A stretch of 64,000 nucleotides of DNA from Cytophagales bacterium (GTDB lineage: Bacteria > Bacteroidota > Bacteroidia > Cytophagales > Spirosomataceae): positions 4,545 through 68,544 of the forward strand of contig JBBSUC010000029.1 in NCBI GenBank assembly GCA_038235275.1, read 5' to 3'. Under the pieces are notes generated by a model. It was not told the origin of the DNA and searched no databases. It was given only the letters and a program-made list of their open reading frames with translations. Shown here in pieces: positions 25,494-58,524 of this stretch (position 1 is its first letter; every line of letters begins with the position of its first letter). Position numbers and translations under genes: made by a program.

Positions 25494-28838
<3,345 letters not shown>

Positions 28839-29019
28839 TCAGTTCGGAAACGGGGGGAGTACAAATAAGGTCGAGCATACTGTAGCGTGGTGTGAAAAGA
28901 GGGACTTCCTGCAAAGTAAGGCATTTTTTGGCAAAGGCGGTGGGGTGAAAACGGCTTCTCAAATCAATCTTTTAGCTAAAAAACCACTAATTTGGCGTCA
29001 TCAACGCAACCCTCCCGTT

Positions 29020-29790: not shown

Positions 29791-29829
29791 CAGCACTACG
29801 CTCAAAGTCGAAAGTAGGCAGGATTAAGA

Positions 29830-31104
29830 TTATGGGAGAAGGTTTGTGCTGAACTCGGCGAACGACATTAATTTGTACTGACTCTGAATTGCTCGATTGA
29901 GGTTTCGGTAGATTGGGTTGTCCAGATCATGCAGTATTTCCCGCAAATTCTTCTCCGACTCGACGGCATTCTGCGGGGCCAGGTCGATCAGATGTCTGTC
30001 GTTTTGGTACTGGTGAATAAAATTATGGAGACTCAGGCCCTCCGTCGTCTCATACCCAAAATCAAGGATAAAGGAGGGTGTTTCGGTGAAGCACGCTTCC
30101 AGGCCCATTGTCGTACCCAGGTGGAAAAACGCCCTGGCAAAATGAACCTTCTCAAATTTTTCAAAAATAGCGTCTTCGGACACGGAGAGGTCGGCGTTTC
30201 GGAAGTCTTCGTCAAAAATCACGTTGGGCAGTTGACGGATTTGATCGTACAGCGTCCAATCCTTCATCACCGGATAGGGCCGCACGACGAGTTTCAGGTC
30301 GGGACGGTAATCAACCATCACCTGAGCGACGCGCCGGATGACTTCCACTTCCTGCCGAGCCAACTCTGGAATGCCCACCGCGCAGCCTAAATAAACGTAT
30401 TCAAAGGAAAAAGAACGGCTAAGCGGCGGCGGCTTGCGGTTCAGGAATTCGTGAATGTAGCAGAATTGACTGGCCCCCACTACCTCGATTTGCGAAGGAG
30501 AAACCCCGTGCAGTTTAGCTACGTCTTCCTTGATACCCTCCGACCAGCACAGGTACGGGACGCGTTTCGAGAACCGGGGATTTTTACAAGCGTGATCCCA
30601 GCTATAAACATACACGCTGGCCGTCCGATTTTCCGTCAAGAGCCTGGCCAGCAGGTAATCGTCCGCGATGGAAGTGTAGAGAATGAATTGATCGATGTCA
30701 TCCAGCCGGGTTTCGCCGCTATACCGTAATCCATCCAAATAGGTATCGTACGAAAGAACTTTGGGGAGCCGCCTCGTCCATTGCAGAATACGCAGTGCCT
30801 TGCCTTTCTGCGCTTCGGTAGCCGCATTGGAGGCGAGGAAGAGCTGCATCAGGTAGTAGTTGTTCTCGCTCCTGGGTATCTGCTTGTACAGCGCGTACCA
30901 GCGCTCCCAAAGTCGGTTCCAGGCCGTAGCTTTACGCTCGCGGATCACCCTGAATTCGACACCTTTTGGCAAGTGGCTCGCAATCGACTCGACCTGGTCG
31001 GCGCGGCCCAGCACCACGACTTCGTGCCGTTGGGCCACTTCCGCAATCACGCGCCTGACATCGTTGCGGAAGTCGAAGAAGGAAACGACGAAGGCGATTT
31101 TCAT
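29830..31104 (-). CDS. hypothetical protein of the glycan cluster (possible GT-B-like transferase)
   Basis: 424 aa. Its start overlaps the stop of the upstream GT4 gene (operonic). MKIAFVVSFFD resembles GT-B N-termini. No definitive motif recognised. Confidence 0.45.
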   Translation of the reverse strand: MKIAFVVSFFDFRNDVRRVIAEVAQRHEVVVLGRADQVESIASHLPKGVEFRVIRERKATAWNRLWERWYALYKQIPRSENNYYLMQLFLASNAATEAQKGKALRILQWTRRLPKVLSYDTYLDGLRYSGETRLDDIDQFILYTSIADDYLLARLLTENRTASVYVYSWDHACKNPRFSKRVPYLCWSEGIKEDVAKLHGVSPSQIEVVGASQFCYIHEFLNRKPPPLSRSFSFEYVYLGCAVGIPELARQEVEVIRRVAQVMVDYRPDLKLVVRPYPVMKDWTLYDQIRQLPNVIFDEDFRNADLSVSEDAIFEKFEKVHFARAFFHLGTTMGLEACFTETPSFILDFGYETTEGLSLHNFIHQYQNDRHLIDLAPQNAVESEKNLREILHDLDNPIYRNLNRAIQSQYKLMSFAEFSTNLLP

Positions 31105-32258
31105 GAATTATGCAAAATTGTCAGCCATTTGGGTGCTTGTATCTCCGCCTCAAAGTTTTCCAGGACTCGCTGTCTTCCTCGCCGTCCCGCCTCCTTCCGC
31201 CGCTCCTTGCTTCCCAAAAAATATAAAATTCCTTCAGCGAGACCTTCCGGGGTACGGTCTTTGACCAGGTAGCCCGTTTCGAGATCCACCACTTCGCGTA
31301 TTCCCCCGACATCCATTGCTACCACGGGTTTTTCAAAAAGCATGGCTTCCAGAATTGAGAGCGGGAAAGCCTCGGTTCGGGAGGGTAATACAAAGATATC
31401 GATGCCGGAGTAGAATGTGTTCGTCTGGGCTGAGGCTGGCAGAAAACGGATGAAATTTTCGAGCCCTCGTTCTTTTACCAATGCCTGCATCGAAGAAAAA
31501 TAGGGATTGGGCTTAGTTGGTGCACCCAGCCATTCAAATCTAACTTGTTTCGTTCCGGTGTATTTGTTGATCAAAATATACATTGCTTCGATTATTGTGT
31601 CAGGAGCTTTTAGAAACGAAAGGTTGGCTACTGTTCCAATTACTACGGTCTTACCATGGAATCGAGGTAAAAGCGGGAGTTTTTCCGCTTTTTTGAGCAA
31701 TATTTCGCTACTAACCGGGCCATGAATCACGGAGATTTTTGTCGGCGATACGCTATAGGTATGTTCGTAGAACGTAGCAACGGCGTTTGAACAGGCGACT
31801 AGTCGGTCGACGCGATCAAGTACGCTTCGTACCCAGGCATCAGACAGTTTGAAGGTGACTAGAAAATCCATTTCGTGCGCGTGCAGGCACAGGGGAACTG
31901 AGGAGCGCAGCGCAGCGCGGACTGCTGGATTGAAAGCGAGGGAGTTTATATAAAGGAGGTTGGGAGCGTGCGAGATTATAACCCGACGAGCGTACCAGTA
32001 TTTGATGTAATCGTATAAACGCAGCGAGATCCGACGCAAAACCCGGCGTAAGAAAACCCGTTTTTCCAAGCCAAAGACATGAACCGAACCGTGTAGCTGG
32101 TATTCATGGAGGGCGGGCCCCATTTCGTTAAAAAGAAAAATAGCGCTGAATTTTTTGGATTCCCGAGTGACCTGTAAAAGATTGAGCATAGCCTGGGAAG
32201 CACCGCCCAGACTGGGGCGGTGCACTAAAAACAAGACCTTTTTCTCAGGAGCAGCCAT
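31101..32258 (-). CDS. family 4 glycosyltransferase (GT-B)
   Basis: 385 aa. C-terminal EAFPLSILEAMLFEKPVVAMDVGGIREVV is the GT4 EX7E-region signature. Confidence 0.85.
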   Translation of the reverse strand: MAAPEKKVLFLVHRPSLGGASQAMLNLLQVTRESKKFSAIFLFNEMGPALHEYQLHGSVHVFGLEKRVFLRRVLRRISLRLYDYIKYWYARRVIISHAPNLLYINSLAFNPAVRAALRSSVPLCLHAHEMDFLVTFKLSDAWVRSVLDRVDRLVACSNAVATFYEHTYSVSPTKISVIHGPVSSEILLKKAEKLPLLPRFHGKTVVIGTVANLSFLKAPDTIIEAMYILINKYTGTKQVRFEWLGAPTKPNPYFSSMQALVKERGLENFIRFLPASAQTNTFYSGIDIFVLPSRTEAFPLSILEAMLFEKPVVAMDVGGIREVVDLETGYLVKDRTPEGLAEGILYFLGSKERRKEAGRRGRQRVLENFEAEIQAPKWLTILHNS

Positions 32259-32262
32259 TGAC

Positions 32263-33807
32263 TTATTTTTTGGTTTGTCTTTTGAGCGAGATTCCCCACT
32301 GTTTCAGATAGTGAGCTAACAATCCCGAAGCCGTCGCCTGGCTATATTTTCTAACTGTAGGATGAAAGAGGCAACGCAATAGCCCTGACATCCCTAAACA
32401 GTCTATGACTCTGGATTCCCATTCCGTGTAGGCAAGTCGGGCGTAATAATCTTTATCCAATCTTTGGAAAAAAGGGCTTGCCAAAACTTCTTGAATCAGG
32501 CTTTTGCCCGCCTGGAAGGCGGACCGTTTCCTCGAACTCCCAGTAAGATAATCTCTTCTGGTAGTACTTGGCTGCTTTTTTAACAAAAGTTCGTACCACA
32601 ATAAACGAGATCCACCTCGAGCGTCATCCTGCCTAGTAATCGACTGGCTCACGTTCTGGCTGTGCCAGCGGTAGCGCAGTAGCATTGCGGGGAGGGAGGT
32701 GAGGGTCGACACCTGGCCTGTCCGAATCCAGAGCGCGTAGTCTTCGGCGTAAGAATAAGCCTTTTCGTAACGGATGCCATGGCGGTTCAGCACCGACTTG
32801 CGGAGCATGCCCGTTTCCGAATTTACCACTTCCCGGACGCCCCCCACGTCCATCGCCACCATCGGTTTCCCGAACAGCATCGCTTCCAGAATCGTGAGCG
32901 GGAAGCCCTCCATGCGGGACGGAAGAACGAAGATATCTATGCTGGCGTAAAACGCGGCGGTTTGCTCAGAAGCGGGCAGAAAAGAAATCTCTCCGGCCAG
33001 GCCATGTCGATTCACCAGTTGCTCGATGGATTGGAAATACGGATCGGCATGAGCAGGTGCGCCCAGCCACTTCAAAATGTTTTTCTTGCCAAGCTGGTAC
33101 TGATTCCTGACAATCAGGAATGCTTCGATAAGCAGGTCTGGAGCCTTCAAATAGGAGAGATTGGCTACTACGCCCATTACGATGACACCGTTGTCAGACC
33201 GGACAGCGGGCGAACTGCGAGCCACCTCGCCAAACAGCCGCTCCGCACTAACCGGCCCGTAAACAACGGCAGTCCGATGGGGAGGAAAGCCAAATGTTCG
33301 CTCATAGGAATCAGCCACCGCCTTCGCACAAGCGATCAACTGGCTGGTGCGCCGGAAGGCATTTCTTGCCCAACTTTCCGGGAAACTGGAAACCACCAGC
33401 GTATCCATGACATGTGCATGCAGGATAAGTGGAATGGTGGAAGCCGGGGCAGCTTTTGAAGTGGGCTTTAAAGTAAGGGAGTTGAGGTATAAGTACCGGG
33501 GTTTCTGAGTACGGATAATCCACTGTACATACAGATATCGCAAATAATCGTACGTAGGCAGCGCAAGACGCCTGCCCATTTTACGAATAACGGCCTTTTT
33601 TTCCAGGGGGAAAATGAAAACGGAGCCATGCTGACTGTATTCCAACAACAAAGGGCCCGTTTCATCAAAAACGAATACGGCTTCGAACCACCTCAAGTCC
33701 CGGCTGGCGTTCAGGAGATTTAGCAGGACCTGCGATGCGCCGCCGAGATTGGGACGCGGGCAAAGAAAAAGTATTCTCTCGTTGGTTATCGGAGGCTTTT
33801 CTTCCAT
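32263..33807 (-). CDS. family 4 glycosyltransferase fused to a C-terminal module homologous to the C-terminal half of the adjacent GT2 protein
   Basis: 514 aa. Residues ~1-340 are paralogous to 31101..32258 (MEGFPLTILEAMLFGKPMVAMDVGGVREVV). Residues ~345-514 (RKSVLNRHGIRYEKAYSYAEDYALWIR...TFQAGKSL...DKDYYARLAYTEWE...GLLAHYL) align collinearly with residues ~155-331 of the GT2 at 33809..34804. Confidence 0.8.
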   Translation of the reverse strand: MEEKPPITNERILFLCPRPNLGGASQVLLNLLNASRDLRWFEAVFVFDETGPLLLEYSQHGSVFIFPLEKKAVIRKMGRRLALPTYDYLRYLYVQWIIRTQKPRYLYLNSLTLKPTSKAAPASTIPLILHAHVMDTLVVSSFPESWARNAFRRTSQLIACAKAVADSYERTFGFPPHRTAVVYGPVSAERLFGEVARSSPAVRSDNGVIVMGVVANLSYLKAPDLLIEAFLIVRNQYQLGKKNILKWLGAPAHADPYFQSIEQLVNRHGLAGEISFLPASEQTAAFYASIDIFVLPSRMEGFPLTILEAMLFGKPMVAMDVGGVREVVNSETGMLRKSVLNRHGIRYEKAYSYAEDYALWIRTGQVSTLTSLPAMLLRYRWHSQNVSQSITRQDDARGGSRLLWYELLLKKQPSTTRRDYLTGSSRKRSAFQAGKSLIQEVLASPFFQRLDKDYYARLAYTEWESRVIDCLGMSGLLRCLFHPTVRKYSQATASGLLAHYLKQWGISLKRQTKK

Positions 33808-33808
33808 G

Positions 33809-34804
33809 CTATCGCTTGAACTTTACGCCGTATCTGCCCAGATAATGCGCTATCAAGCCAATGGCCGTAGCGCGACTTCTCTTTCGGAAATTGGTTTGTT
33901 GAAAGCATTTTATCAATCCCCACAGGCCAGCATAGTCGATAAACTTCAACTCCCACTCAGTTACGGCTAATTGGCCGAAGTAATCTTTGTCAACGAGCGG
34001 ACTTTCCAGCACCGTAGCCAGCAGTTCCTTTCCTGCTTGAAAAGTAGCCCGATCACGAAAATTCCAGGCCAAATAGGCTTTTTGAAACTCAGAGATTGAA
34101 CCACCGAGTACCAATTCATGCCACAGAATGCGAGCCTTGATTTGAGCCATCACTCGGCTGGGATCGGTTTTGCTCATATTGGCCGAATGCCAGCGGTACA
34201 ACAACAGGGTGTCAGGCAAGGAGGAAATACAGGAAACCCGACTGATTCGGATCCAGAAGGCGTAATCTGCCGCGTAGTGGTATTCTTTTTCGTAGCGGAT
34301 ATCATAACGAGTCAGAATTTCCTTTCGGATCATGGTGGTAGGGTGTCCCAAAGAAGAGTTAACTGAGAGCAAAGTAAAACACTGCTTGTAATCACTCGGA
34401 TGAAATACAATATGGTCGCTGTCTCCAAAAAACTGAAAAGTAGTACCACATGCCCCAACCTCGGGATGTGCGTGCATAAAGTTAACCTGCCGGGCAAATC
34501 GCTCCGATAAGCTGATATCATCGGCGTCCATACGAGCAATATATTCACCCTGAGACAAGTTGATGCCGAGGTTTAGCGTAGCGACCAAGCCAAGGTTTCC
34601 GGCGTTTTTCGTATAAAAAATTCGGGTATCCCCGTATGATTTGATGATTTCCTCACTGGCATCCGTGGAGCCATCGTTGATGATGAGAAACTCAAAATCC
34701 GTGAAAGTTTGGCTCAGTATGCTATCCATCGCCTCCCGTAGATAAGCGGCGGCATTATAAACTGGCATTAACACGCTGACCTTTGGTTTCACATTCGTAT
34801 CCAT
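33809..34804 (-). CDS. family 2 glycosyltransferase
   Basis: VSVLMPVYNAAAYLREAMDSILSQTFTDFEFLIINDGSTD and a DADD motif. The C-terminal ~175 aa is shared with the upstream GT4 fusion. Confidence 0.85.
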   Translation of the reverse strand: MDTNVKPKVSVLMPVYNAAAYLREAMDSILSQTFTDFEFLIINDGSTDASEEIIKSYGDTRIFYTKNAGNLGLVATLNLGINLSQGEYIARMDADDISLSERFARQVNFMHAHPEVGACGTTFQFFGDSDHIVFHPSDYKQCFTLLSVNSSLGHPTTMIRKEILTRYDIRYEKEYHYAADYAFWIRISRVSCISSLPDTLLLYRWHSANMSKTDPSRVMAQIKARILWHELVLGGSISEFQKAYLAWNFRDRATFQAGKELLATVLESPLVDKDYFGQLAVTEWELKFIDYAGLWGLIKCFQQTNFRKRSRATAIGLIAHYLGRYGVKFKR

Positions 34805-35673
34805 GAGGCGGGAATTAAATCATGGGTTTGCTCTTGGGCAGTTTCATCGGCAAACCATTGCTCGGGAGCAATTACTATCTTATCTGGCGCAGGGTTTAAC
34901 CATGCACCCCACCAACTAAAACTACTATTGGCGATGATATGATGGCGGCACTGGCTCATTAACTGCATGTCTTTGTGGCTATCGGCCTCTGCGTGGCATT
35001 CCACAAAGGTAACGGGATAGGGCAAAAGTAAATTTTCACGCGCCCAGGTCAAGTCATCGGAAAACACAAAAAAGTGAATATTGCTGAATCGCTCGGCTAG
35101 GTAATCTGAGGCCTTCTCGTAATAGTCTATCGAACAAAGACCGTGAAACTGCCGGGTCGCCGGGCTGTTTACGTAGTCGCCACGCCGAATGTGCAGGCTC
35201 GCAGAACGAGTCGTGCTGATTGATCCAGCTAATTCACTATTCGGTTCATTGATAAAATTCAATTTTTGTCGAAGCAAATCCTCAATCTTTTTGAAATATA
35301 ATTCCGATTGGAAGTACCCGACCAAATGCGTATTTATGGAGGTAGTTTCGAATAGGTCGGGATCGTAGCGCAGTGATCGCTCGCGGTACTCCGTTACTGG
35401 ATAGCCTCGCCTCGCTAATCGCTGCAGCGTTCCTGTAAGAGGCAGTTTCGTGAGACCCAGAGCAACACGGGCCGTTGGTGGTGGTAGATCAGGCGTTATC
35501 CCAAACGCGCCTAATTCAAAAATACGGGGCGTAACGACACAACCCTTTCCAAGATTTTGGAAAAAACTCAGATCGAAGGCTACGGACGTGCCGTGCCAAT
35601 GCGCCAGGGCGCGAGCCGTCGCGTACTGAAAGAGTTGGTTACCTAAGCCGCCTTGTAGTTTTACTGTAATCAT
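34789..35673 (-). CDS. family 11 glycosyltransferase (alpha-1,2-fucosyltransferase-like)
   Basis: N-terminus MITVKLQGGLGNQLFQYATA is the GT11 hallmark. A HxRRGDY motif (HIRRGDY) is also present. Confidence 0.8.
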   Translation of the reverse strand: MITVKLQGGLGNQLFQYATARALAHWHGTSVAFDLSFFQNLGKGCVVTPRIFELGAFGITPDLPPPTARVALGLTKLPLTGTLQRLARRGYPVTEYRERSLRYDPDLFETTSINTHLVGYFQSELYFKKIEDLLRQKLNFINEPNSELAGSISTTRSASLHIRRGDYVNSPATRQFHGLCSIDYYEKASDYLAERFSNIHFFVFSDDLTWARENLLLPYPVTFVECHAEADSHKDMQLMSQCRHHIIANSSFSWWGAWLNPAPDKIVIAPEQWFADETAQEQTHDLIPASWIRM

Positions 35674-36854
35674 ACTGTATCCAGGGGTTTGTTCGCCAGC
35701 AGGGCCAGGTACAAGCGCTCGTAGCGATCCGTTATTTTTTCCCAGGTAAAACGCTGCTGCCAGGCGGCGCGGGCCGAAGTACCCATTTCCTCTCGCAGAG
35801 TTTTATTTCTCAATAACTCTTCAAGCTGACGACTGGCGGCGTCGATGTCGGCGTAGCCACGCGTGTCGCGGAATTCAGTGGGAATGATTTGGCCCCCGCC
35901 CGTCCATTCGGCAATCTCGCGGGCATTGCCCACCTCGGTGGATAGAAAAGGCGTCCCCGCTGCTGCCGCCTCAAACAAAACGATGGGTGAACACTCGACG
36001 CGGGAAGGGAACAGGAACAAATCGGCTTCCTTGAACGCCTGCACGGTGTCCTCCCGACTCAGAGAACGCGACAGGATTTTCTTGCCTGACAACAGGTACT
36101 GTTTTGGCAGTTCTAGGTAGCGTCGCCGCCGTCCGAGTATTTTGGTAATTTTTGCCGGATTTTGTCCCACAAAAAGCAGCGTGGCGTTTTTGATACGGGC
36201 ATTTAGGAAAATCTGGATGGCCTCGTGATGGCCCTTTTCGCCCGTGAAGGTACCCACGTGCAGAATGAGCTTGGTGCGTATGCCGATACCCCGTTTTTTC
36301 TTGAGAAAAGGTTTAGGCATCGGCCCGAATTCTTCATGGGAAGCGCCGTTTGGAATGAGAATGGTGTTTTTTACTCCGTGCTTTTGGGCAAAAGTCGCGT
36401 CCTGGTAGGTATCTGACAAAAAGACGTTGGCGTCGAATTCGCGCAGCCAGTCGGGCATTTTTTCAAAATAGGCTTGATAAGCAGGGTCATGCAAAGCCGA
36501 GAAGCCCGTTGGCACAAACACTTTCCTGGCGGGAAGCGAGGAAAGATGCGGTAGCAGCAGGTCGGTTGCCCACTGCTGGGCAGCGAAGCAGGTGAAGAGG
36601 TCAAATTTTTCCTGTTGAACAAACTGGACATACTCCTCAGCGGGTCCCTTCGTGCCTCGGATAGCGTTGCCACTAATTGGGAACGAGCGAATACTCACCC
36701 CGTTCAAAGTGTCCAAATCACGATGGTCATCTTCCGAAGTAGCCACCGTCACGTCGTGACCGCGCGCTGCCAAACCCTCCGAAAGCTGCCTCACTACTTC
36801 CGCCATGCCATGCCGGGCGGGCAGGTAGGACTCGACGGTGTGGAGGATTTTCAT
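35670..36854 (-). CDS. family 4 glycosyltransferase
   Basis: MKILHTVESYLPARHGMAEVVRQLSEGLAARGHDVTV (GT4 N-domain) plus a C-terminal E..EAAAAGTP region. Start moved to the Met at MKILHT; the ORF extends upstream to 36887. Confidence 0.85.
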   Translation of the reverse strand: MKILHTVESYLPARHGMAEVVRQLSEGLAARGHDVTVATSEDDHRDLDTLNGVSIRSFPISGNAIRGTKGPAEEYVQFVQQEKFDLFTCFAAQQWATDLLLPHLSSLPARKVFVPTGFSALHDPAYQAYFEKMPDWLREFDANVFLSDTYQDATFAQKHGVKNTILIPNGASHEEFGPMPKPFLKKKRGIGIRTKLILHVGTFTGEKGHHEAIQIFLNARIKNATLLFVGQNPAKITKILGRRRRYLELPKQYLLSGKKILSRSLSREDTVQAFKEADLFLFPSRVECSPIVLFEAAAAGTPFLSTEVGNAREIAEWTGGGQIIPTEFRDTRGYADIDAASRQLEELLRNKTLREEMGTSARAAWQQRFTWEKITDRYERLYLALLANKPLDTV

Positions 36855-37591
36855 AGCTGCTGAGGTTTTGCCGCAATTATTCCACAATACGGTGATAACA
36901 GCCAGCTATCAAAGTTAACCCAGCGCAATAACCTCCAATGGATATGCTTCATGTACTTCTCCCGGTAATGTGTCATTCTTTCAGAGAGTTCACTATCATA
37001 CCAAAAAGCATATTTTCCAAAATACCCTTTATAAATAATTTCATAGCCAGCTTTTTCCAATAATGCTGCCCATTTGTCTGGATTCATGGCCTTAGTATTG
37101 TGTCTTTGCAGATTAGCACCATCGAATAATCTGTGCAACAAGAACTGGAATCCTCTAAAATTCGGCGTCGTTATAATGATTGTTCCATTAATAGAATTCA
37201 ATTCTATGTGCTTCTCGATTATTTCTTGAAAATTTGTAAAATGCTCGATAAAGCCAAAGGAACACACTACGTCAAACTTGTTTTTAGAGTCAAAATTCAG
37301 GACATCCGTTTGATAGAACTCGCCGTACTTTACATTGCGCTCAGCCAGCCAATCAGGTAGTCTGATCAAATGAGGCGTCAAGTCCAGACCATTTAACTTC
37401 ATCCCTCTTTTTCCAAAATGAATCAGATATCGTCCGGGAAAGCAGCCGATTTCTAAGATAGTTTTGCCCGATAACTCTTTATCTTTAAAGTAATAATGGC
37501 AAAGCCACTCGGTGAGCGTATCTTCCTCCTCGTAAAAACGAAAATTGTCATAGCTCCGATCCCAATACTGCTGGTCTAAGTTCATATCCAT
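36851..37591 (-). CDS. class I SAM-dependent methyltransferase
   Basis: ILEIGCFPGRYL motif I (GxGxG-like) and an acidic motif II. Sits between the GT genes and the Wzt-like ATPase. Confidence 0.8.
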   Translation of the reverse strand: MDMNLDQQYWDRSYDNFRFYEEEDTLTEWLCHYYFKDKELSGKTILEIGCFPGRYLIHFGKRGMKLNGLDLTPHLIRLPDWLAERNVKYGEFYQTDVLNFDSKNKFDVVCSFGFIEHFTNFQEIIEKHIELNSINGTIIITTPNFRGFQFLLHRLFDGANLQRHNTKAMNPDKWAALLEKAGYEIIYKGYFGKYAFWYDSELSERMTHYREKYMKHIHWRLLRWVNFDSWLLSPYCGIIAAKPQQL

Positions 37592-37612
37592 TCTTCAAAT
37601 TGACCTTACCCC

Positions 37613-38908
37613 TTACTCTAGTTGAGTTTTCCATTCGAGCATAGGGCGCATATATCCGGCGAGTCCTCCAAAATAATCGCCTCGCACCTCCTTACCATCT
37701 TCGATTGAAATATGAAGCAAGTTTTTCAGGAGCAAAGGATTTCGGTATGCTTCACCAGAAATGTTGAGCGACACATAATAATCACCTTGGTTAAGTAGGT
37801 GTTTCGGTATTTCGCAGCTTGTGAGGAATGACCCACAAGGCAGCGGTTTGCCGTAATACTGGGATTCGTGATTATTGATACTTTGAAAAATAATCTCGTC
37901 CAGATCATTCCATAGGGATAGGGTAAATCCTATTGAATGTCCTTCTTTTACAATCCGATACCTGATATTTATTTTGAAGGAAACATCAGTAGTCAGGACA
38001 TCATCTTCTTCTTCAGAAATGGCCTTTGCGCATATAGACAGCAATTCAATTCCTTGGTATATGGGTCTGTTGGTATCGTCCCATTCATAAGTCGAAATAG
38101 CGCTGTTCTCTACTTGCAGGTACTGATGAACCATCGCTTCGACCAATCCTTGATCTGTAATGCGGCCAAATTGCATAAGCATAGCTTGTTTGCAGAGTGA
38201 CTTCATTGCGCTCATATTATGACTCACAAACAGCACCGTCCGCCCATCGTTCTCGCTGACATCCTTCATTTTCCCCAAACACTTCTTTTGAAATTCGGCA
38301 TCGCCCACGGCCAGCACCTCGTCCACGACCAGGATTTCGGGTTCCAGGTGCGCAGCTACCGCGAAAGCCAGGCGCACGTACATGCCGGAGGAATAGCGCT
38401 TCACGGGCGTGTCGAGGTAGCGCTCCACGCCGGCGAAATCCACGATTTCGTCGAGTTTGCGGCGAATTTCGCCTTTTCTCATCCCGAGAATAGCACCGTT
38501 GAGAAAAATGTTCTCGCGGCCCGTCAGTTCAGGGTGAAAGCCCGTGCCCACTTCCAGCAGCGAAGCCATGCGGCCCCGCACCCGAATGCGCCCGGTGGTG
38601 GGTTTGGTCACGCGCGACAGAATTTTGAGCAGCGTGGATTTTCCGGCCCCGTTACGGCCGATGATACCCAGGATTTCGCCTTTTTTTACCTCGAATGAAA
38701 TATCCTGTAACGCCCACACGAAATCGCTCGTGCCTTTGGTCGCGCGGTCATTGGCCTGGCCTATCTTCTGGTAGGGATCTTCCCGGCCCCGTACGCCCGC
38801 CCACCAGCGCGTCAGGTCGCGGCTGAGCGTCCCCGTCGAGATCTCGCCCAACTGATAGAGTTTGGAAATATTTTCAACTTTGATGGCTACATCCGACATT
38901 TTTGACAT
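37613..38908 (-). CDS. Wzt/TagH-family glycan-export ABC transporter ATP-binding protein with C-terminal carbohydrate-binding domain
   Basis: Walker A GRNGAGKSTLLK, signature YSSGMYVRLAFA, Walker B ILVVDEVLAVGD, H-loop SHNM. An extra ~170-aa C-terminal beta-rich domain is present, as in Wzt C-terminal glycan-binding modules. Confidence 0.85.
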   Translation of the reverse strand: MSKMSDVAIKVENISKLYQLGEISTGTLSRDLTRWWAGVRGREDPYQKIGQANDRATKGTSDFVWALQDISFEVKKGEILGIIGRNGAGKSTLLKILSRVTKPTTGRIRVRGRMASLLEVGTGFHPELTGRENIFLNGAILGMRKGEIRRKLDEIVDFAGVERYLDTPVKRYSSGMYVRLAFAVAAHLEPEILVVDEVLAVGDAEFQKKCLGKMKDVSENDGRTVLFVSHNMSAMKSLCKQAMLMQFGRITDQGLVEAMVHQYLQVENSAISTYEWDDTNRPIYQGIELLSICAKAISEEEDDVLTTDVSFKINIRYRIVKEGHSIGFTLSLWNDLDEIIFQSINNHESQYYGKPLPCGSFLTSCEIPKHLLNQGDYYVSLNISGEAYRNPLLLKNLLHISIEDGKEVRGDYFGGLAGYMRPMLEWKTQLE

Positions 38909-39149
38909 TTAAGCTACGTCGCTCCAGCGCACAATGCGTCCGCTGACAGCATAGTATAACCCGAGTCTAAGACTTGCAAAACTTACTCCTTCATTTTCAC
39001 GCACTTAGCGGAGGACTTTTCCTTGATTAGCTTTAGGAAGTATCGCTTCCAATCACTGGCCTTTTTGAGTGTGATTGTTATGGTTTGTAATTTTACTTGG
39101 CGATGAAGATAGGGAGAATAATTGAATTGCTTGGGCTTCGGGCCGTTCA

Positions 39150-40493
39150 GTGAGACCGACCGTCGACGGCCATTTATTTTTAGTACGCAGTCTCCCTTCG
39201 GAGGACCCCGCACAACGTTCGCGGCGGGGGAAGACTACGAAGTACGGGGGCGAAGACAAAATCGGCCGCATGGCGAAGCTGGAGCAGCTCGAACCGATGG
39301 AGATCGTGCAGCGCTACACCAACGACTTCCACCGGGTCATGGAGGATTTCAACATCCTGCCCCCCAGCATCAAACCCACCGCCACGGGTCACCTCATCGA
39401 GCAGATCGAAGCCGTGCAGGATTTGATCGCGAAGGGTCTGGCCTACCAATCGAACGGCTCGGTTTATTTCGATATAAATGCCTACAACGAGGCGGGTAAC
39501 GACTACGGCAAGCTTTCGGGCCGCATTCTGGAAGACTTGCTGAACGAAACCCGCGAGCTGGACGGTCAGTCCGAGAAGCGCAATCCGTTGGATTGTTCGA
39601 TTTGGAAAAATGCCTCGCCCGAGCACCTTATGCAATGGAATTCGCCCTGGGGACGCGGATTTCCCGGCTGGCACCCCGAATGCACTTGCATGAGCGCCAA
39701 GTACCTGGGCAACCAATTCGATATCCACGGCGGCGGTATGGATCTGAAATTCCCGCACCACGAGTGCGAAATCGCGCAGGCCAAGGGCCTCACGGGTACC
39801 GATCCGGTGCGCTACTGGATGCACACCAATATGCTGACGGTCAACGGCCAGAAGATGTCGAAATCGCTGGGTAATTCGTTCCTGCCCGCCCAGTTATTCA
39901 GCGGCGACCACGAACTGCTCGACCAGGCATACAGCCCCATGACGGTGCGGTTTTTCATGCTGCAAAGCCAGTACCGCAGCACCCTGGATTTCTCGAACGA
40001 CGCCCTGAAGGCCGCCCAAAAAGGCTTTAAGCGGCTGGCTAATGGTCTGCGTATCGTAAAAACGCTGGAATACACCGCCGAGGATGGTATAGCACCGGAT
40101 GAGAAAAAGCGGGTCAACATCGCGCAGTCGTTGCAGGGCTTCTACGACGGCATGAACGACGACCTGAATACTTCCGTCGCCATCGCGCACCTTTTCAATT
40201 TGTTGAAGTATGTGAATATGCTGTACATGAATCAGTCGAAATCGGCGGCCCTGGGCGAGGAGCTTTTCGCCCAATTAAAAGCCAACTTCGTGACTTTCTT
40301 CGAGGACGTCCTCGGTTTGCAGGAAGAAGCCGCCGAAGGTACGGCTGTATTGGCAGGAATGCTAAGCCTTTACCGCGAATACAAAGCCGCGCAGCAGTAC
40401 GACAAAGTCGATGAAGTGCGTTCTTATTTCAAAAATCAGGGATTGGGGATTCGGAACATGAAGCACCGGATCGACTGGGCGTACGAGGAGTGA
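39150..40493 (+). CDS. cysS: cysteine--tRNA ligase, apparently N-terminally truncated/decayed
   Basis: Strong CysRS homology from ~[19 protein letters not shown] onward, including Zn-binding [29 protein letters not shown] and KMSKS. No CGPTVY/HIGH-motif region is recognisable in the upstream ~250 bp in any frame. The ORF starts at GTG, directly preceded by an in-frame TGA. Confidence 0.75.
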
Positions 40494-40775
40494 GTGAGTT
40501 AGTTAAAGCGAGTGATACAGTTCTATTTACACTCCCAAGCTCAAGACCAGGTCCCACGCCGTCAATGTACGATTTGACAATTTCCCTCTGCTATGCTACG
40601 AAACAGGTCATTACGCGCTAATGTCTTCCCGGCTTTTGCGCTTTGCTGCTGATCGTGAAGTTGTCGCTTGCTCCACGTACACGGCCAACTAGTGACAACG
40701 GTCAATCTGCGGCACCAAAAACAAAACGGGCTACCCCTTGATAGCCCGCTACTGTAATTAGGGTATTGGCTAAAA

Positions 40776-42158
40776 TCAGAAACCACTTACATTCAGACGA
40801 CCGCCTGTTACTGTCTTGCCACTTAGCGATGCCGTGGCTACAGCTGTATTCAAGATAGTGGCCTTTAAAGTTGCCCCTCTGTCACCACTATGCGCTGCGC
40901 GAAGAGCAGCACCACCGGTTACGTGGGGTGTAGCCATGGAAGTACCGCTATACGAGCCATAGGTATTTGGAGGCAAGGAGGAATAAATCCCTGAACCGGG
41001 AGCGCCCAGATCAACCGTATTAGCACCGTAATTGGAGAAGCTGGATATAGCACCTGTGCTGGTGATAGAGGCTACAGCAATAATATTAGCGCTTGTATAG
41101 CCAGAAGGATAACTAAGCGTAGCATCATTGTTATTGCCGTCATTACCAGCGGCGGCTATGAACAGGATATTCTGGGTATTTGCCCGATCAATAGCGTCTT
41201 TCAATGCTTGTGAAAAGCCACCGCCTCCCCAGGAGTTGTTACTGGCAACCAGGTCAATACCATGACGCGTTTTCATATCTGTCAAATAATCTACAGCCTT
41301 GATGGCGTTGGCAGTAGTACCACCCCGACGGCCCAGGAATTTGCAGGAGATCATTTTTACGTTCCAAGTCACGCCGGCTACGCCTATTCCATTACCACCT
41401 ACTCCACCAATGGTACCGGCTACGTGTGTCCCGTGCTTATCCACTGATCCTCTTTTACCACCATCATAAACTGAATTGTTGTTACCGTCAAAATCCCAGC
41501 CATTGACATCATCCACGTAGCCATTACCGTCATTATCAATACCATCTTCTTTATCAAAGGGATTGATCCAAATGTTAGCACTCAGATCAGGATGATCTGT
41601 CTGAAAACCTTCATCAATGATTCCTACAATCACGGTTGAAGAACCAGTATGACCAGCTGCCCAGGCTTCACCCGCCTGACTGCCAAATTCGTTTGCCGGA
41701 ATGGTAGCATCGCCGTACATGCCCCACAGCGAACCGTTGGTAAAATACGTATCGTTGGAGGTCGCATCGTAGGTATAGATGTAATTGGGCTCGGCGTATT
41801 CAACATTTTCCAAACCTTTCATGCGTCCCACCGCCTCAGCTGCATCCAGCGGAGTTCTGATCAGGTACAGCCCATCCCGGTCTCCGACTTTTTCCATCAT
41901 TTTGGTCAAGATCCGCTCCGATACCACACCATTGACCCGGCTGAGGGCTCTCTCCCTTCCGGTTTCACTGGTACCGGGCTTGAATTTGACCAAAAATTCA
42001 TTCGGGACTACGTCCTGTGCCCCAACCCGGGCCGAAGAGCGGTCAGGAGTAGGACTTTCGATAAAATCGGGCTCGGTCATACATCCCGTTACCATAAATG
42101 CGACGGCTAATGCTACCCAGCCAGATGGTGTTCCCCATTGTCTACAATTCATTTTCAT
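40776..42158 (-). CDS. S8 family subtilisin-like serine peptidase lipoprotein with I9 propeptide
   Basis: Lipobox AFMVTGC. Catalytic triad contexts: Asp (IIDEG/VGIIDEGF), His (HGTHVAGTIGG), Ser (GTSMATPHVTG). Confidence 0.85.
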   Translation of the reverse strand: MKMNCRQWGTPSGWVALAVAFMVTGCMTEPDFIESPTPDRSSARVGAQDVVPNEFLVKFKPGTSETGRERALSRVNGVVSERILTKMMEKVGDRDGLYLIRTPLDAAEAVGRMKGLENVEYAEPNYIYTYDATSNDTYFTNGSLWGMYGDATIPANEFGSQAGEAWAAGHTGSSTVIVGIIDEGFQTDHPDLSANIWINPFDKEDGIDNDGNGYVDDVNGWDFDGNNNSVYDGGKRGSVDKHGTHVAGTIGGVGGNGIGVAGVTWNVKMISCKFLGRRGGTTANAIKAVDYLTDMKTRHGIDLVASNNSWGGGGFSQALKDAIDRANTQNILFIAAAGNDGNNNDATLSYPSGYTSANIIAVASITSTGAISSFSNYGANTVDLGAPGSGIYSSLPPNTYGSYSGTSMATPHVTGGAALRAAHSGDRGATLKATILNTAVATASLSGKTVTGGRLNVSGF

Positions 42159-42423
42159 ACATTTGATTTAAAGGTGCTTTGAAAACGAAATGTAGAAATT
42201 AATTTTAACATATTTTTCTCCGTTCAAAAAAATTTACAAATTATTTTTTCATGTTTCCAGACGCATCACTTATCGGCCAGTTTTTTGTCGTTTATCAACT
42301 TTCAGTGTCTTATCGTATTCTAAGCCTGTTTTCTGAATTACTTCGGTTACAACGCGCCATCTCCTGCTGCTCCAGTTTCTTAACTGGGGGCTTAACACAA
42401 AACAATTCTGTGACTTCTAAAAT

Positions 42424-45312
42424 CTACCCTTCCGCTTCCTCCGCATACTCCTCCACCGGAATACACGCACAAATCAAATTCCGATCGCCGTAGGCGCTAT
42501 CGACGCGGCTGACGCTGGGCCAGAACTTGTTGAAGCGCAGGGCGGGGAGCGGGAAGGCGGCTTTTTCGCGGGCGTAGGGGCGGGTCCAGTCGTCGGACAG
42601 CACCACGCGGGCGGTGTGGGGGGCGTGTTTCAGGACGTTCTCGGCGCGGTCGGCCTGGCCGGTTTCTACTTCGCGAATTTCCTGGCGGATGGCCAGCATC
42701 GTGTCGCAGAAGCGGTCAAGTTCGGCCTTGGATTCCGATTCGGTGGGTTCGATCATGAGCGTCCCGGCCACCGGGAACGACAGCGTGGGGGCGTGGTAGC
42801 CGTAGTCCATGAGCCGCTTGGCGATGTCCTCGGCCTCGATGCCCGCCGCCTTGAACGGACGGCAGTCAAGGATCATTTCGTGGGCGCAGCGGCCGTTAGC
42901 ACCGGTATAGAGTACCTGGAAATCGTCGCGCAGGCGTTCCTTGATGTAGTTGGCGTTCAGGATCGCCGTTTTGGTGGCGTTGGTCAGGCCCGCGCCGCCC
43001 ATCATGGCGATGTAGGCGTAGGAAATCGTGAGGATGCTCGCGCTGCCGTAGGGCGCCGCCGACACCGCACCCGCCTTGCCGATTTTGCCGCCTTCGAGGC
43101 TGACGTGTTGCGGCAGGAACGGCACCAATTGCGCCGCCACGCCGATGGGCCCCATGCCGGGACCGCCGCCGCCGTGCGGAATGCAGAAGGTTTTGTGCAG
43201 GTTGAGGTGGCAGACGTCCGCCCCGATCAGGCCCGGACTCGTCAGGCCGACTTGCGCGTTCATGTTCGCGCCGTCCATGTACACCTGTCCGCCGTGTTCG
43301 TGGATCAGGCCGCAGATTTCCTTGATGCTTTCTTCAAAAACGCCGTGCGTGGACGGGTAGGTGACCATCAGGCAGGCGAGTTGGTCGCTGTACTGCTCGG
43401 CCTTGGCCCGCAGGTCGGCGACGTCGATGTTGCCGCGCTCGTCGCACTTGGTCACCACGACTTTCATGCCCGCCATCACCGCCGAGGCGGGATTGGTGCC
43501 GTGCGCCGATGACGGAATCAGGGCCACATTGCGGTGGCTGTCGCCCCGGCTTTCGTGGTAGGCGCGGATCACCATCAGGCCCGCGTACTCGCCCTGGGCA
43601 CCGGAGTTGGGTTGCAGCGACATGGCCGCGAAACCCGTAATTTCGCACAACCAGGCGTTCAGTTCCTTAAACATGATCTGGTAGCCACGCGTCTGCGCGA
43701 AGGGCGCGAAGGGGTGAATCGCCCCGAATTCCGGCCAGGTGACGGGAATCATCTCCGCCGTGGCGTTGAGTTTCATCGTGCAACTTCCCAGCGCAATCAT
43801 CGAATGCACCAGCGATAGATCCTTGTTTTCCAGCGATTTGAGGTACCGCAGCATCTCGTGTTCGGTGTGGTTGGTGTTGAACACCGGGTGCGTCAGGTAG
43901 GGCGTGTGGCGAGTCAGGTTCTCGGGAAAAGCGATTTCCATTTCTTCCTCGATTACCATCTCGCCCGCAAAGCCGGAAACCTCAGCGAAGAGGTTCAGCA
44001 GGTTGATGACATCGTCGAAAGTCTTGGCCTCGTCGAACGACACGCTCACGCGGTTATCGGGGAACGGATAATGCCGCAGGTTGACGCCCCACTTGCCCGA
44101 TTCTTCTTTCAGCTTTTTGGCCAAAGCCGTCTGAATCGTGATGGTGTCGAAGTAGTCGTCGGTCGTGACGTGGAAATTGAATTTCTTGATCGTCTCGGCG
44201 AACAGTTTGGCCAGGCCGTGCGTCCGGGCGGCGATGGCTTTCAGTCCGTCGGGACCGTGATAGACGGCGTAGGCCCCGGCCATGACGGCCAGCAGTACCT
44301 GCGCGGTGCAGATGTTGGACGTGGCCTTTTCGCGGCGGATGTGTTGCTCGCGGGTTTGCAGGGCCATGCGCAGGGCGCGGTTGCCCTCGGCGTCCACCGA
44401 CACGCCGATGATGCGTCCCGGCAGTTGGCGTTTGAAGGCGTCTTTGGTGGCAAAAAACGCCGCGTGCGGTCCGCCGTAGCCCATCGGCACGCCAAAGCGC
44501 TGCGCCGAGCCGACGACCACGTCGGCCCCCATTTCGCCGGGGGCTTTGAGCAAAGTCAGGGCCAGCAAATCGGCGGCGACGGCCACGGTGAGGTCGAGTT
44601 CGTGGGCGGCGGCGATGAAGTCGGTGTAGTCGTAGGCCTGTCCGTTGGTGGCGGGGTACTGGACCAGCGCCCCGAACAGGGCCTCCTGCGTGAGGTCGAT
44701 GGTACGGTGGTTGCCGACCAGCAGTTTGATACCCACGGGCTTGGCACGGGTGAAAAGCAGGTCGATGGTCTGCGGGTGGCAGAGGTCGGAGACGAAGAAG
44801 GTATCGGCGGCTTTTTTGCTGGCGGGCCGCGCGGCGTAGAGCATCGTCATGGCTTCGGCGGCGGCGGTGGATTCGTCGAGCAGCGAGGCGTTGGCGATTT
44901 CCATGCCCGTCAGGTCGGTGACGACGGTCTGGAAATTAAGCAGCATTTCGAGCCGTCCCTGCGCGATTTCGGCCTGGTAGGGCGTGTAAGCCGTGTACCA
45001 ACCCGGATTTTCCAGAATATTCCGCAGGATGACGTTGGGCGTGATGGTGTCGTAGTAGCCTTGCCCGATGTAAGTTTTCAGAATAGCATTCTCACTCGCC
45101 ATTCGCTTGAAGCCCCGCAAAAAGGCGCGTTCCGAGCGGGCGGGCGGCAGGTTCAGCGGCTCGGCCATGCGGATGCCCGCCGGGACGGTCTGGTCGATGA
45201 GTTCGTCTAAGGTTTCGACGCCCAGCGTTTGGAGCATTTCGCTGAGTTCGGTTTCGTCTTTGCCGTGGTGGCGGTTTTCAAATTTTTCCTGGGACTGGAG
45301 ATTGATTTTCAT
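42424..45312 (-). CDS. gcvP: glycine dehydrogenase (decarboxylating), P-protein
   Basis: 962-aa single-chain GcvP with the characteristic two PLP-dependent domains. Confidence 0.95.
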
Positions 45313-47535: not shown

Positions 47536-48549
47536 TCACTGCTCATAAACTGCCAAAGCCTCCTTCATCCGCCTTTTAATAATTTGTCGGAGCTTCTCAG
47601 GCTCCAGTACGGTCACGCCTTCGCCAAAGCCGAGTATTTCTTTTTCAAGCTCGAAGTTATGCTGCACTTTCAGCTTAATGACCATGCCGTCGGGACCACG
47701 CTCCACGACCTGCTGCGAAGGGTGGAGCGGCTTGGTTTCGACGTAGGGCGCATGAAGCGCGGTGACGAATAACTTCACTTTGATGGGCCGCAAATTCCCA
47801 CTCACCGTAACCCCAATGACATCGCGATAATACAGTTCAGGATCAATTAGTTGATTGGGAATGTACTCGACGTCGGGCGCGGGTTTGAGGGCCATGATTC
47901 TGTCCAGGGCCAGATTTGTAACGTTCCGCTGGTCGGTGCGAACGCCCACCGCGAACCAGCGGTTTTTGAATTCTTTCAGCCACCAGACGTGAAACGTAAA
48001 CGTCTGCGAGTTGCGGGCCGAAAAAGACTGATACGTTAATTGAATCGCTTTCTTCTGAACCACGGCCTGGTACAGGTCGTCCAGGAAGTGCAGCCCTTTC
48101 AGGTTATCGTTTTTCTCAAAATCAATCACCGGAGCCACCTTTCGGGCCGACGAAAAAACGTGGTCTTCCAGCTTCTGCACCACTTCATTGAGGGCTGTAA
48201 AGTGCGAAAAACTCTTGAACTGTTTCAAAACCTCCACCGCTTCGTTCATCCGCGCCAAGTCGCCGTCCGAGAGCGGAATGTTGGTGATGCTGTAATTGGG
48301 ATCTTCGTAGGTGTAGTACTTCTTCTCCCGGATGATGATGGGCGCAAAATACCCCAGCTTGTCGCTCCGCATCATCTGCAAATCGGCCTGCACCGTGCGG
48401 CGGCTAATGCCTTTGTCGATGCCCTCGTATTCGTAGAGCGATTCCGAAACCTTTTCCATCAGATCTTCGAGCGTCCAGTTGCGCTGCCGGTTGCGCAGAC
48501 AGGCGTCGATGGTTTTGTAGCGGACGAGGGCGTTGCGGTTGGCGGGCAT
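47536..48549 (-). CDS. WYL-domain transcriptional regulator (HTH-WYL-C-terminal extension)
   Basis: N-terminal HTH (LVRYKTIDACLRNRQRNWTLEDLMEKV...ISRRTVQADLQMMR). Central WYL-type domain (FTFHVWWLKEFKNRWFAVG). Start moved to Met MPANRN; the ORF extends upstream to 48648. Confidence 0.75.
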   Translation of the reverse strand: MPANRNALVRYKTIDACLRNRQRNWTLEDLMEKVSESLYEYEGIDKGISRRTVQADLQMMRSDKLGYFAPIIIREKKYYTYEDPNYSITNIPLSDGDLARMNEAVEVLKQFKSFSHFTALNEVVQKLEDHVFSSARKVAPVIDFEKNDNLKGLHFLDDLYQAVVQKKAIQLTYQSFSARNSQTFTFHVWWLKEFKNRWFAVGVRTDQRNVTNLALDRIMALKPAPDVEYIPNQLIDPELYYRDVIGVTVSGNLRPIKVKLFVTALHAPYVETKPLHPSQQVVERGPDGMVIKLKVQHNFELEKEILGFGEGVTVLEPEKLRQIIKRRMKEALAVYEQ

Positions 48550-48783
48550 GAGCAGGAAAGAAAAAATATTTTCAGAAAAATAGAAAGTTTTTTCATCTGC
48601 GCAAAAACACTGCGCACTAGCCACTAACCTTTGTAGCGACGAAAGCAACGTAGTCGAACCTGATGCGGGTTTCTTTATAGCCCCATAGTGTCGGTAGTCG
48701 CTGACTGCCGATATGCTGTCGGCTGCGCCCTGTTTTTCGTCATTTGATCTGTCGGTCAGAGGTTCAATTCCTCTTCCTGCTTC

Positions 48784-48840
48784 GGCAGGATAGCTCAGTG
48801 GTTAGAGCAACAGTAAATGCGGGTTCGAGTCCTGCTACCA
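48784..48840 (+). ncRNA. truncated tRNA-like element (acceptor stem + D-arm + T-loop-like segment, no anticodon arm)
   Basis: GGCAGGA-TA-GCTCAGTGGTTAGAGC gives perfect tRNA 5' acceptor and D-arm consensus. The 3' TCCTGCT-A-CCA pairs with the 5' acceptor, and GGTTCGAGTCC is the T-loop consensus. Only ~20 nt separate D-arm and 3' acceptor, so total length is ~57 nt. Confidence 0.4.
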
Positions 48841-49183
48841 CCCGAAAGGGTGGTCCGTTGGTGGAAGGCGAAGCAGACCACTTCATAAAAAAGGTCACCT
48901 TGAAAAACCAGTAGAGACGCTGCCCCGTGAACTATTCGGCTTGCCGGATACGCCACAATTGAGTCGATGCCAGCGGGCAGACCAGGGGACAGCCGGGCCG
49001 GAAGGCCGCTTCTGGAAGAGCATTCAGTATTGATTCTGCCAACGATTTCCCTGTTGGCACCCGGTGCTGAACCCTTTTTCCGAACCGCCTTCCCGAAGGT
49101 CGTCGCCACCTGCCTCCGCGTGGGCTGAATGGGTAGCGGCTCGCTGGTTTATATTTAGCAACCACTTTTTATCAAAAATAACC

Positions 49184-58074: not shown

Positions 58075-58524
58075 TTATCTTAAAAGGTAAAGCCTGACAA
58101 GTGTCTTATGATCTTGCCACCGCCTACTTAGAATGTGTCTGATTTGAGAAGATAAAAGAGTCCATTTTTGTACATTATAAGTGCCAGATCGAAAGTAATG
58201 ATACAATTTTGTCTCTGCCATCTTCCCGTATCTCGTAGTTTTCCCAGGTATTAAGTTGTGCGTATGTCTTCCGAAGGGAGACTGCATACTAAAATAAGAG
58301 GCCACTGATGGTCGGCCCCGTTCAACGGCCACCGTCGTCAAAAGCCGCATACTCCGCTAATCCTAATTTAATGGCGAGCCAGTTATATCGTGGCTGTTTT
58401 TTTCAAATATACTTTTTTTTGCGAGAGATTTTAAATATTTAACCATTTAGCTCTTTACACGCAAGAATCCACTTTTCCTCGTCCGTAGGCTTTACGGGAA
58501 CTCGCTTCACTAAATCCCTCCCCC

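Follow-up and report, generated by a model that had tools for sequence, protein, structure and literature searches.

A cysteinyl-tRNA synthetase gene lacking its 5' end at the terminus of a dispersed intergenic repeat element in a member of the Spirosomataceae

Bacterial cysteinyl-tRNA synthetase (CysRS), the product of cysS, is a class I enzyme whose zinc ligands in Escherichia coli are C28, C209, H234 and E238 (1li5 numbering). The gene described here, cysS', lies in a stretch of 64 000 nucleotides (the window) of a Cytophagales bacterium of the family Spirosomataceae (GenBank assembly GCA_038235275.1, contig JBBSUC010000029.1, positions 4545 to 68 544), and is a CysRS gene whose 5' end is missing, the remainder being joined to the 3' end of a short repeat element. 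Functional paralogues of CysRS have been described, CysRS* in Desulfobacterales and MshC in Actinobacteria; both keep the catalytic Rossmann fold with its HIGH motif, and it is the anticodon-binding part that has been lost or altered (PMC9437257). The locus in the window is of a different kind, and cysS' is probably, though far from certainly, a remnant that was recently inactivated by a rearrangement associated with the repeat element, in a genome that would carry an intact cysS elsewhere.

The truncated cysS gene

The open reading frame (ORF) that carries cysS' is truly a 5'-truncated CysRS gene. Its homologues in a large protein collection are cysteine-tRNA ligases only, the closest being those of Persicitalea jodogahamensis, Salmonirosea aquatica and metagenomic relatives, which are about 494 aa long and cover 93% of the query; over ORF residues 34-447 the identity to CysRS of the Persicitalea clade is 90-93.5%. 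When the ORF is aligned with eight close orthologues (493-498 aa), identity starts at residue G34, which corresponds to orthologue residue 81, and continues without a gap to the C-terminus, and five further orthologues give the same starting point. Orthologue residues 1-80 (...VRYVRNITDVGHLVGDGDE), including VCGPTVY and HLGN, have no counterpart in the ORF, and with them are missing the first Rossmann strands, a zinc-ligand cysteine and the HIGH-type motif, which takes the form HLGN in this clade. The Pfam profile tRNA-synt_1e is matched from position 58 to position 300 of 301 by ORF residues 35-290, the N-terminus of the profile remaining unmatched. Since full-length relatives align from residue 1 to the solved CysRS structures 6ujd and 1li5, what has been lost belongs to the structured catalytic core rather than to a variable extension.

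The break is equally sharp in the DNA. Compared with the two closest full-length loci (L001 and L002), identity is at a random level up to position 39247 and 85-88% from 39248/39249, which is nucleotide 240 of cysS; blastn matches at 88% (L001) and 85% (L002) run from 39248/9 to 40491-40504, and identity ceases about 13 nt beyond the stop codon. A tblastn search with E. coli CysRS recovers the main part of the gene (E = 2e-63) from E. coli residue 71 onwards, and the N-terminal 75 residues of the same protein find nothing better than E = 0.17 over the 64 kb. No N-terminal fragment with CGPTVY or HLGN is present in any frame of the window, and a hidden N-terminal remnant was rejected, none being found by this tblastn search, by the in-register DNA comparison or in a six-frame translation of 38890-39300.

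The initial annotation of this DNA, made from the letters alone, had proposed that cysS lacks its N-terminal HIGH-motif region and that the upstream DNA has no coding potential for CGPTVY or HIGH. Both proposals are borne out by the protein alignment to Bacteroidota CysRS, the Pfam profile, the DNA comparison and the tblastn and six-frame searches, with the refinements that the missing part is 80 residues rather than about 85 and that homology begins at ORF residue 34 rather than at about 30. The error of alignment that it allowed for can be set aside; the truncation is sharp in DNA and protein alike. It was mistaken in placing the GTG start directly after an in-frame TGA: the first upstream in-frame stop, the TGA at 39123-39125, sits eight codons before the GTG.

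All 119 homologues of comparable length are full-length, at about 494 aa, and no family of HIGH-less CysRS is found among 8000 scored homologues, contig-edge fragments aside. Three short CysRS entries (P0026, P0035 and P0032) were considered as parallels and rejected, for they start at an internal Met on contigs of 1.4-4 kb and are thus fragments at contig edges. The 447-aa form of the ORF has no exact entry in the public protein collection, in which the shorter 407-aa form is present.

Downstream of the break the ORF keeps KMSKS (residues 235-239), the anticodon-binding domain DALR_2 (PF09190; residues 331-389, E = 9e-9) and three of the four zinc ligands (C178, H203 and E207, at the WH.EC and HHxxE positions); the fourth, equivalent to C28 and located in VCGPTVY, falls within the missing 80 residues. 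Among the features expected of a functional CysRS, the KMSKS loop and the DALR-type domain are therefore present, and the N-terminal Rossmann half with its HIGH-type signature and the complete set of four zinc ligands are not. As expected of a gene remnant, the coding sequence is shorter than that of all orthologues and unrelated sequence stands at the break. Because it lacks the first two Rossmann strands and the first helix, the HLGN motif and the first zinc-ligand cysteine, the product of cysS' would be unable to make Cys-tRNA; from what is established for class I synthetases, a HIGH-less CysRS that is also without one zinc ligand cannot charge tRNA. Such an enzyme cannot be the CysRS of the cell, and a second copy of the gene is thus to be expected.

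The part of the protein that is retained carries an excess of private amino acid changes. The 119 full-length homologues show at least 97% conservation in 237 columns of the alignment, and in these columns cysS' has seven private substitutions (E75K, E100Q, F149C, A150S, L176P, G211A and D436N); the number in the other homologues is 0.69 on average and never exceeds five. L176P lies two residues before the zinc-ligand cysteine, G211A follows the HHxxE ligand motif, and F149C is at an invariant Phe. At the codon level the changes private to the cysS' lineage comprise 20 nonsynonymous and 42 synonymous (N/S 0.48), against 12/57 and 19/90 in two relatives (N/S 0.21; Fisher p = 0.019 against cysS'), and the terminal branch of cysS' is among the longest in its clade. 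Selection is thus relaxed on this lineage, to a modest extent. By our arithmetic the N/S excess is compatible with about 16 neutral substitutions since the loss of constraint, and the inactivation would accordingly be recent.

A functional HIGH-less protein, made from the GTG at 39150 or from the ATG at 39270 and either completed by an N-terminal piece that is encoded elsewhere, as a split synthetase, or serving a non-canonical purpose for which the KMSKS half and the anticodon-binding domain suffice, such as the binding of tRNA-Cys, would account for the 414 open codons, for the low overall dN/dS and for the retention of KMSKS, three zinc ligands and DALR_2. We regard it as highly improbable. 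Nothing supports the reading as a split gene, the architecture is shared by none of the scored proteins other than fragments, and private changes have arisen beside zinc ligands (L176P, G211A) and at the invariant Phe; the ORF is preceded by a terminator-like hairpin and by no recognizable promoter (see below). In addition, known CysRS paralogues keep the catalytic core (PMC9437257).

The repeat element at the join

The sequence to which cysS' is joined belongs to a dispersed repeat family. Comparison of the window with itself reveals two copies, A at the junction and B in the opposite orientation, that are about 75% identical over about 125 nt and share an identical 16-nt core, GCAGTCTCCCTTCGGA. 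A family profile was built from 16 public metagenome contigs found with a 25-nt conserved block, and it matches about 45 copies in these contigs (L085-L100) and the two in the window. The complete 6.6-Mb genome of a relative (L102) has one full copy (L102:11574-11658) together with weaker partial matches, and the profile detects none in the cysS neighbourhoods of other Cytophagales, about 1.7 Mb in all.

The element is about 110-150 nt long and is composed of a co-varying stem with a T-run, a near-invariant core, AGTACGCAGTCTCCCTTCGGAAGACATACGCACAAC, that forms an imperfect hairpin, a variable GC-rich spacer, and a terminal module with at least one unit of GGAAGACTACGA(A/C)G(A/T)AC(G/T)GGGG; the repeat units in the family are GGAAGACTACGAAGTACGGGG. 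The distance from the end of the stem to TTTATTTTT is 2-4 nt in 37 copies, and the two arms of the stem change together from copy to copy (GGCCGTT/AACGGCC, GGCCATT/AATGGCC, GGCCTTT/AAAGGCC and AACCGTC/GACGGTT). With its GC-rich stem and T-run, this 5' module is predicted to be terminator-like, of the intrinsic (Rho-independent) kind. No convincing covariation is seen outside this first stem, and a long-range helix suggested by the two copies in the window is not kept in 34 copies. The element has no family in Rfam, the best match at the junction having E = 0.78 and 18.9 bits against a cut-off of 45 bits; a structured RNA, riboswitch or intron at the junction was rejected, there being no significant Rfam match, nothing called by ARAGORN and a fold z-score of -0.13. 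The core sequence does not occur in the searchable literature library.

In copy A the stem arms are at 39141-39146 and 39166-39171 and the T-run is at 39172-39181; these are followed by the near-invariant core at 39182-39216, AGTACGCAGTCTCCCTTCGGAGGAC..CACAAC, by the GC-rich spacer, and by the terminal unit GGGGGAAGACTACGAAGTACGGGGG at 39226-39250, the last bases of which overlap the first bases of cysS' in a G-run at 39246-39250. The junction reads ...GAAGTACGGGGG up to the join and CGAAGACAAAATCGG after it, the native cysS sequence being GAAGAGGGCGAAGACAAAATCGG. Conservation within the family ends at ...AC(G/T)GGGG, which in copy A is at 39246-39250, exactly where cysS begins. As conservation ceases after this final GGGG, at the start of cysS', the join is at the 3' terminus proper of the element, within a short shared sequence. 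The break had been placed by the initial annotation at the edge of a glycan cluster, which is correct as to position; the DNA that abuts the gene is nevertheless the 3' end of the repeat element and not glycan-cluster DNA. The sequence of the 5' extension can be aligned with copies of the element between which there are 1-nt indels, so that 39150-39247 is not conserved as coding sequence, and the faint similarity to CysRS discerned there (RPTV..HL..VR) belongs to a repeated non-coding element and is no residue of cysS.

The 3' flank of copy B, GAAGATGGCAGAGACAAAAT (58206-58225, minus strand), matches the breakpoint site of cysS (nucleotides 234-253 of the orthologous gene) at 17 of 20 positions. 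This is its best match anywhere in cysS, the score is reached by none of 300 shuffles, and no cysS sequence follows GAAGATGGCAGAGACAAAAT. The match may represent either the native terminus of the element, providing 12-17 nt of microhomology, or a preferred target.

Copy B also marks the right edge of an island of 35% G+C at about 53000-58100, set in a background of about 53%. Its genes are those for a type II DNA methyltransferase of the D12 class, a protein of 317 aa recognized by PADLOC CARF models, a 611-aa ATPase resembling ORC/CDC6 and a 402-aa metallophosphatase, copy B being about 130 nt upstream of the last of these genes. The region has the appearance of a defence-type island gained by horizontal transfer.

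Copies on the metagenome contigs are intergenic and often in tandem. They bracket toxin-antitoxin genes (HigB/HigA, UPF0175, DUF433 and RES-Xre) and also genes for an HNH nuclease, a HIRAN protein, a deaminase and a reverse-transcriptase fragment, as well as many orphan ORFs. No integrase or transposase is seen beside copies on these short contigs or in the window. It is conceivable, if doubtful, that the family represents a kind of recombination or cassette-boundary element not described before, belonging to Spirosomataceae that resemble Persicitalea, integron-like and without a recognized integrase, in which case its 3' end may recombine with sequences like GAAGA.GGC..AGACAAAAT. An element of this kind would bring cassettes for toxin-antitoxin systems and defence together into arrays, would mark the edges of islands, and would occasionally capture or truncate housekeeping genes such as cysS.

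Neighbourhood and origin of the probable remnant

On both sides cysS' lies outside the native cysS neighbourhood, an observation to which we attach moderate weight. We compared 82 cysS loci from Cytophagales and neighbouring orders, none of which shares flanking genes with the window. An M28 peptidase gene is directly downstream of cysS in 45 of the 82, from Persicitalea via Dyadobacter to Cyclobacteriaceae and Chitinophagales, the native arrangement being cysS-(DUF192)-M28 (L104 is a further locus with cysS-M28), and a further 21 loci have a conserved 394-aa gene upstream of cysS. Homologues of M28, DUF192 and the upstream 394-aa protein are found nowhere in the window, and the conserved neighbourhood is accordingly absent. 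To the right of cysS' are instead the S8 peptidase gene and gcvP, both on the minus strand; comparison of the synteny of this side with relatives was uninformative, the neighbours of S8 being different in L102, except that it brought to light the copy of the element in L102.

To the left, the 340 bp between the start of wzt and the beginning of cysS homology consist of an AT-rich spacer and the GC-richer segment of the element. The lower G+C content of the upstream DNA, which the initial annotation had remarked upon, is confirmed for 38909-39139 (33-47% GC). The operon that begins with wzt (29830-38908, minus strand) encodes an unknown 424-aa protein, glycosyltransferases in the order GT4, GT4, GT2, GT11 and GT4, a methyltransferase and the Wzt-type ATPase; beyond it lies coaX, and a GH2 gene and a UvrA-like gene are also found to its left. 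In the nearest relative with this operon (L084, Wzt 88% identical) a gene for the Wzm permease (ABC2_membrane) lies 63 nt upstream of wzt. Homology to L084 (window 37613-38912, L084:9086-10000) stops at 38912, and no wzm or other ABC-2 permease gene is found anywhere in the window, so that the glycan operon and cysS are interrupted at one and the same point; on this contig the system for export seems to be incomplete. A remnant of wzm in the 340-bp gap was sought and rejected, since L084 homology ends at 38912 and the minus-strand frames contain nothing permease-like.

No exact Bacteroidota-type or sigma-70-type promoter is found on the plus strand before the ORF. The spacer contains a one-mismatch Bacteroidota-type promoter, TTTG-N20-TAATTTTA, at 39064-39095 on this strand, and the stem and T-run of the element sit between this sole near-match and the ORF. 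The only sigma-70-like match in the spacer (38980-38953) is on the minus strand, directed toward wzt.

The initial annotation suggested that insertion of the glycan cluster had broken the gene, in which case the native cysS would have been split in situ and its 5' 240 nt would lie at the far end of the island. The break does adjoin the glycan operon, parts of which are lower in GC, and the edge of the operon is a breakpoint of synteny with L084. However, no 5' fragment of cysS is found in the 39 kb to the left or in the whole of the window, the downstream side is non-native and lacks M28, and coaX, the GH2 gene and the UvrA-like gene to the left of the operon are ordinary core-type genes; moreover, the operon is itself cut, and it is the repeat element rather than island DNA that abuts cysS. 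We therefore consider disruption in situ to be quite improbable. Restoration of cysS by an inversion between the two inverted copies of the element can also be dismissed, as no cysS 5' sequence lies beyond copy B.

The window derives from a metagenome-type contig, and the reliability of the assembled join was assessed with an independent assembly (Logan, run SRR24807090), which reproduces 27634-39195 and 40412-42967 of the window at 100% identity. Both assemblies agree that wzt has no wzm upstream of it and that the 3' end of cysS' is linked to S8. It could be supposed that a chimeric join was made at a multi-copy repeat, either between the element and cysS or between the glycan side and the cysS' side, and that the real genome has an intact cysS. 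The metagenomic origin of the sequence and its recurrence in a Logan assembly of a sequencing run, the multiple copies of the element, the ending of Logan contigs at 39195 in the repeat core and their resumption at 40412, and the glycan operon without wzm at the same point, which resembles a second broken gene set, are all in keeping with this, but we think it rather unlikely. A mis-join at the repeat core would leave the 3' half of the element (39196-39247) attached to nucleotide 240 of cysS, and the gene would still be truncated; an intact gene requires a false join exactly at 39246-39262, where the shared sequence is at most about 15 nt, imperfect, and below assembler k-mers. Furthermore, no wzm is present within 290 nt upstream of wzt in either assembly, and an excess of private substitutions is not expected of a healthy gene that has been wrongly joined.

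We favour the view of cysS' as the remnant of an element-associated rearrangement, in which a copy of cysS would have become fused, at its nucleotide 240, with the 3' end of the small repeat element described above. A short similarity, consisting of the G-run and GAAGAC and possibly reaching ...GACAAAAT, would have been the site of the join. The remnant would then have been left outside its native neighbourhood, between the 5'-cut glycan operon and the S8 peptidase gene, where, unable to make Cys-tRNA, it would have begun to gather damaging substitutions. The cell would owe its essential CysRS activity to a second, intact cysS in another part of the genome, for which the conserved cysS-M28 locus is the probable site.

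Several observations weigh against this view. Over the 414 homologous codons the reading frame is without stops and frameshifts, and it is gap-free in comparison with L001, L002, L003 and L009, so that no disabling mutation is seen, and pairwise dN/dS to relatives is low (0.045-0.06); any decay must therefore be recent, and continued selection is possible. No second cysS of the same genome was seen, and among the matches listed from a genome collection the relatives reach at most 86% identity. Synteny is fluid in this clade, as illustrated by the unrelated neighbours of S8 in L102, and this weakens the argument from context without abolishing it. Finally, the Logan contigs break inside the core of the element and inside cysS', so that 39196-40411 is given by one assembly, and the join at 39196-39248 is present in that assembly only.

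The best full-length match to cysS' is P0001, an NCBI protein from a 70.8-kb contig, at 93.5% identity, and circumstantially it is compatible with being the intact cysS of the same assembly: like four proteins of the contig that holds the window, it has no entry in the position index, in which the NCBI CysRS proteins P0003 and P0024 do occur. Should it be the true intact copy, cysS' would be a diverged fragment rather than the product of a recent duplication within the genome, and might have been acquired from a related species. Another protein of the same 90% cluster, P0122, was rejected for this role, being only about 91% identical and having no link to this genome.

Table 1. Positions of the features around the join and of the second copy of the element
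Feature	Position	Strand	Remarks
cysS'	39248..40493	+	3' 84% of cysteine-tRNA ligase gene; orthologue codons 81-494 and stop
ORF with GTG start, 447 aa	39150..40493	+	Carries cysS'
33-codon 5' extension of ORF, non-homologous to CysRS	39150..39247	+	GTG start; reads through repeat element
Alternative 407-aa reading, internal ATG (MAKLEQ...)	39270..40493	+	Public protein record P0121 for source contig
Repeat element copy A	39128..39250	+	About 75% identity to copy B; nhmmer E = 2.5e-21 against family model
Repeat element copy B	58207..58329	-	Opposite orientation to A; nhmmer E = 5.3e-20
AT-rich spacer	38909..39127	.	Between wzt start and element
Wzt-type ABC ATPase, first gene of glycan operon	37613..38908	-	Pfam ABC_tran

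Other features of the window and comparison with known systems

Three other features of the window are of note. A Y-RNA-like or tRNA-like RNA is present at 48750-48843 on the plus strand, where the Rfam YrlA model scores 34.6 bits (E = 7e-6), below its 69-bit cut-off, and an overlapping match to the tRNA model scores 34.5 bits, above its 29-bit cut-off; no tRNA is called by ARAGORN. The RNA has a gene for a WYL-domain regulator (47536-48648, minus strand) on one side and genes for an SPFH/Band7 protein (49064-50290) and RtcB (50395-51930) on the other, an arrangement similar to the Rsr/Y-RNA/RtcB RNA-repair modules except that no Ro protein is seen. An ORF of 1477 codons at 11931-16364 (minus strand) combines a complete AcrB-type RND transporter (ACR_tran, residues 17-1044) with a C-terminal OEP domain (residues 1304-1475), and would be an unusual fusion of an inner-membrane pump to a TolC-like protein, unless it is a sequencing artefact. 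At 21119-24106 (plus strand) a 995-aa UvrA-like ABC ATPase with UvrA interaction and DNA-binding domains, possibly a class II type UvrA paralogue, adjoins a small ABC ATPase (24707-25414).

The finding at cysS' is real and ordinary in kind, and its most interesting by-product is the uncharacterized repeat family at the junction, copies of which bracket cassettes for toxin-antitoxin systems and defence in a group of Bacteroidota from soil and fresh water. The ORF should not be counted as the CysRS of this organism; automated pipelines, and the public 407-aa record, would score cysS as present in assessments of completeness and metabolism in spite of the absent catalytic motif. For genome biology the locus is a clean example of a fragment of an essential gene joined to a dispersed repeat. 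It would be remarkable if cysS' were the sole cysS or were functional, and the evidence points the other way.

The repeat element itself resembles integron attC arrays, REP/BIME-type elements and miniature inverted-repeat elements (MITEs) in being short, modular, hairpin-containing, multi-copy, intergenic and cassette-bracketing. It differs from integron attC sites in that its stem and T-run resemble an intrinsic terminator and not the attC bottom-strand fold, and in having no attC-like Rfam match; its copies do bracket small toxin-antitoxin and orphan cassettes.

Set beside the bacterial class I CysRS enzymes (6ujd, 1li5/1u0b), the product of cysS' is alike over residues 34-447, with KMSKS, the zinc-ligand positions and DALR_2, and differs by the loss of residues 1-80, by the non-native neighbourhood of its gene and by substitutions at near-invariant sites. 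With the truncated remnants and pseudogenes that are found at repeats it has in common that an essential gene is deleted at its 5' end, fused to a repeat in a non-native context, under relaxed constraint and without a recognizable promoter; it differs from them in having as yet no stops or frameshifts, and its intact partner is one that we infer. CysRS* and MshC are likewise extra genes derived from CysRS, and cysS' presents the reverse of their case, having lost the catalytic motif and kept the anticodon-binding part.

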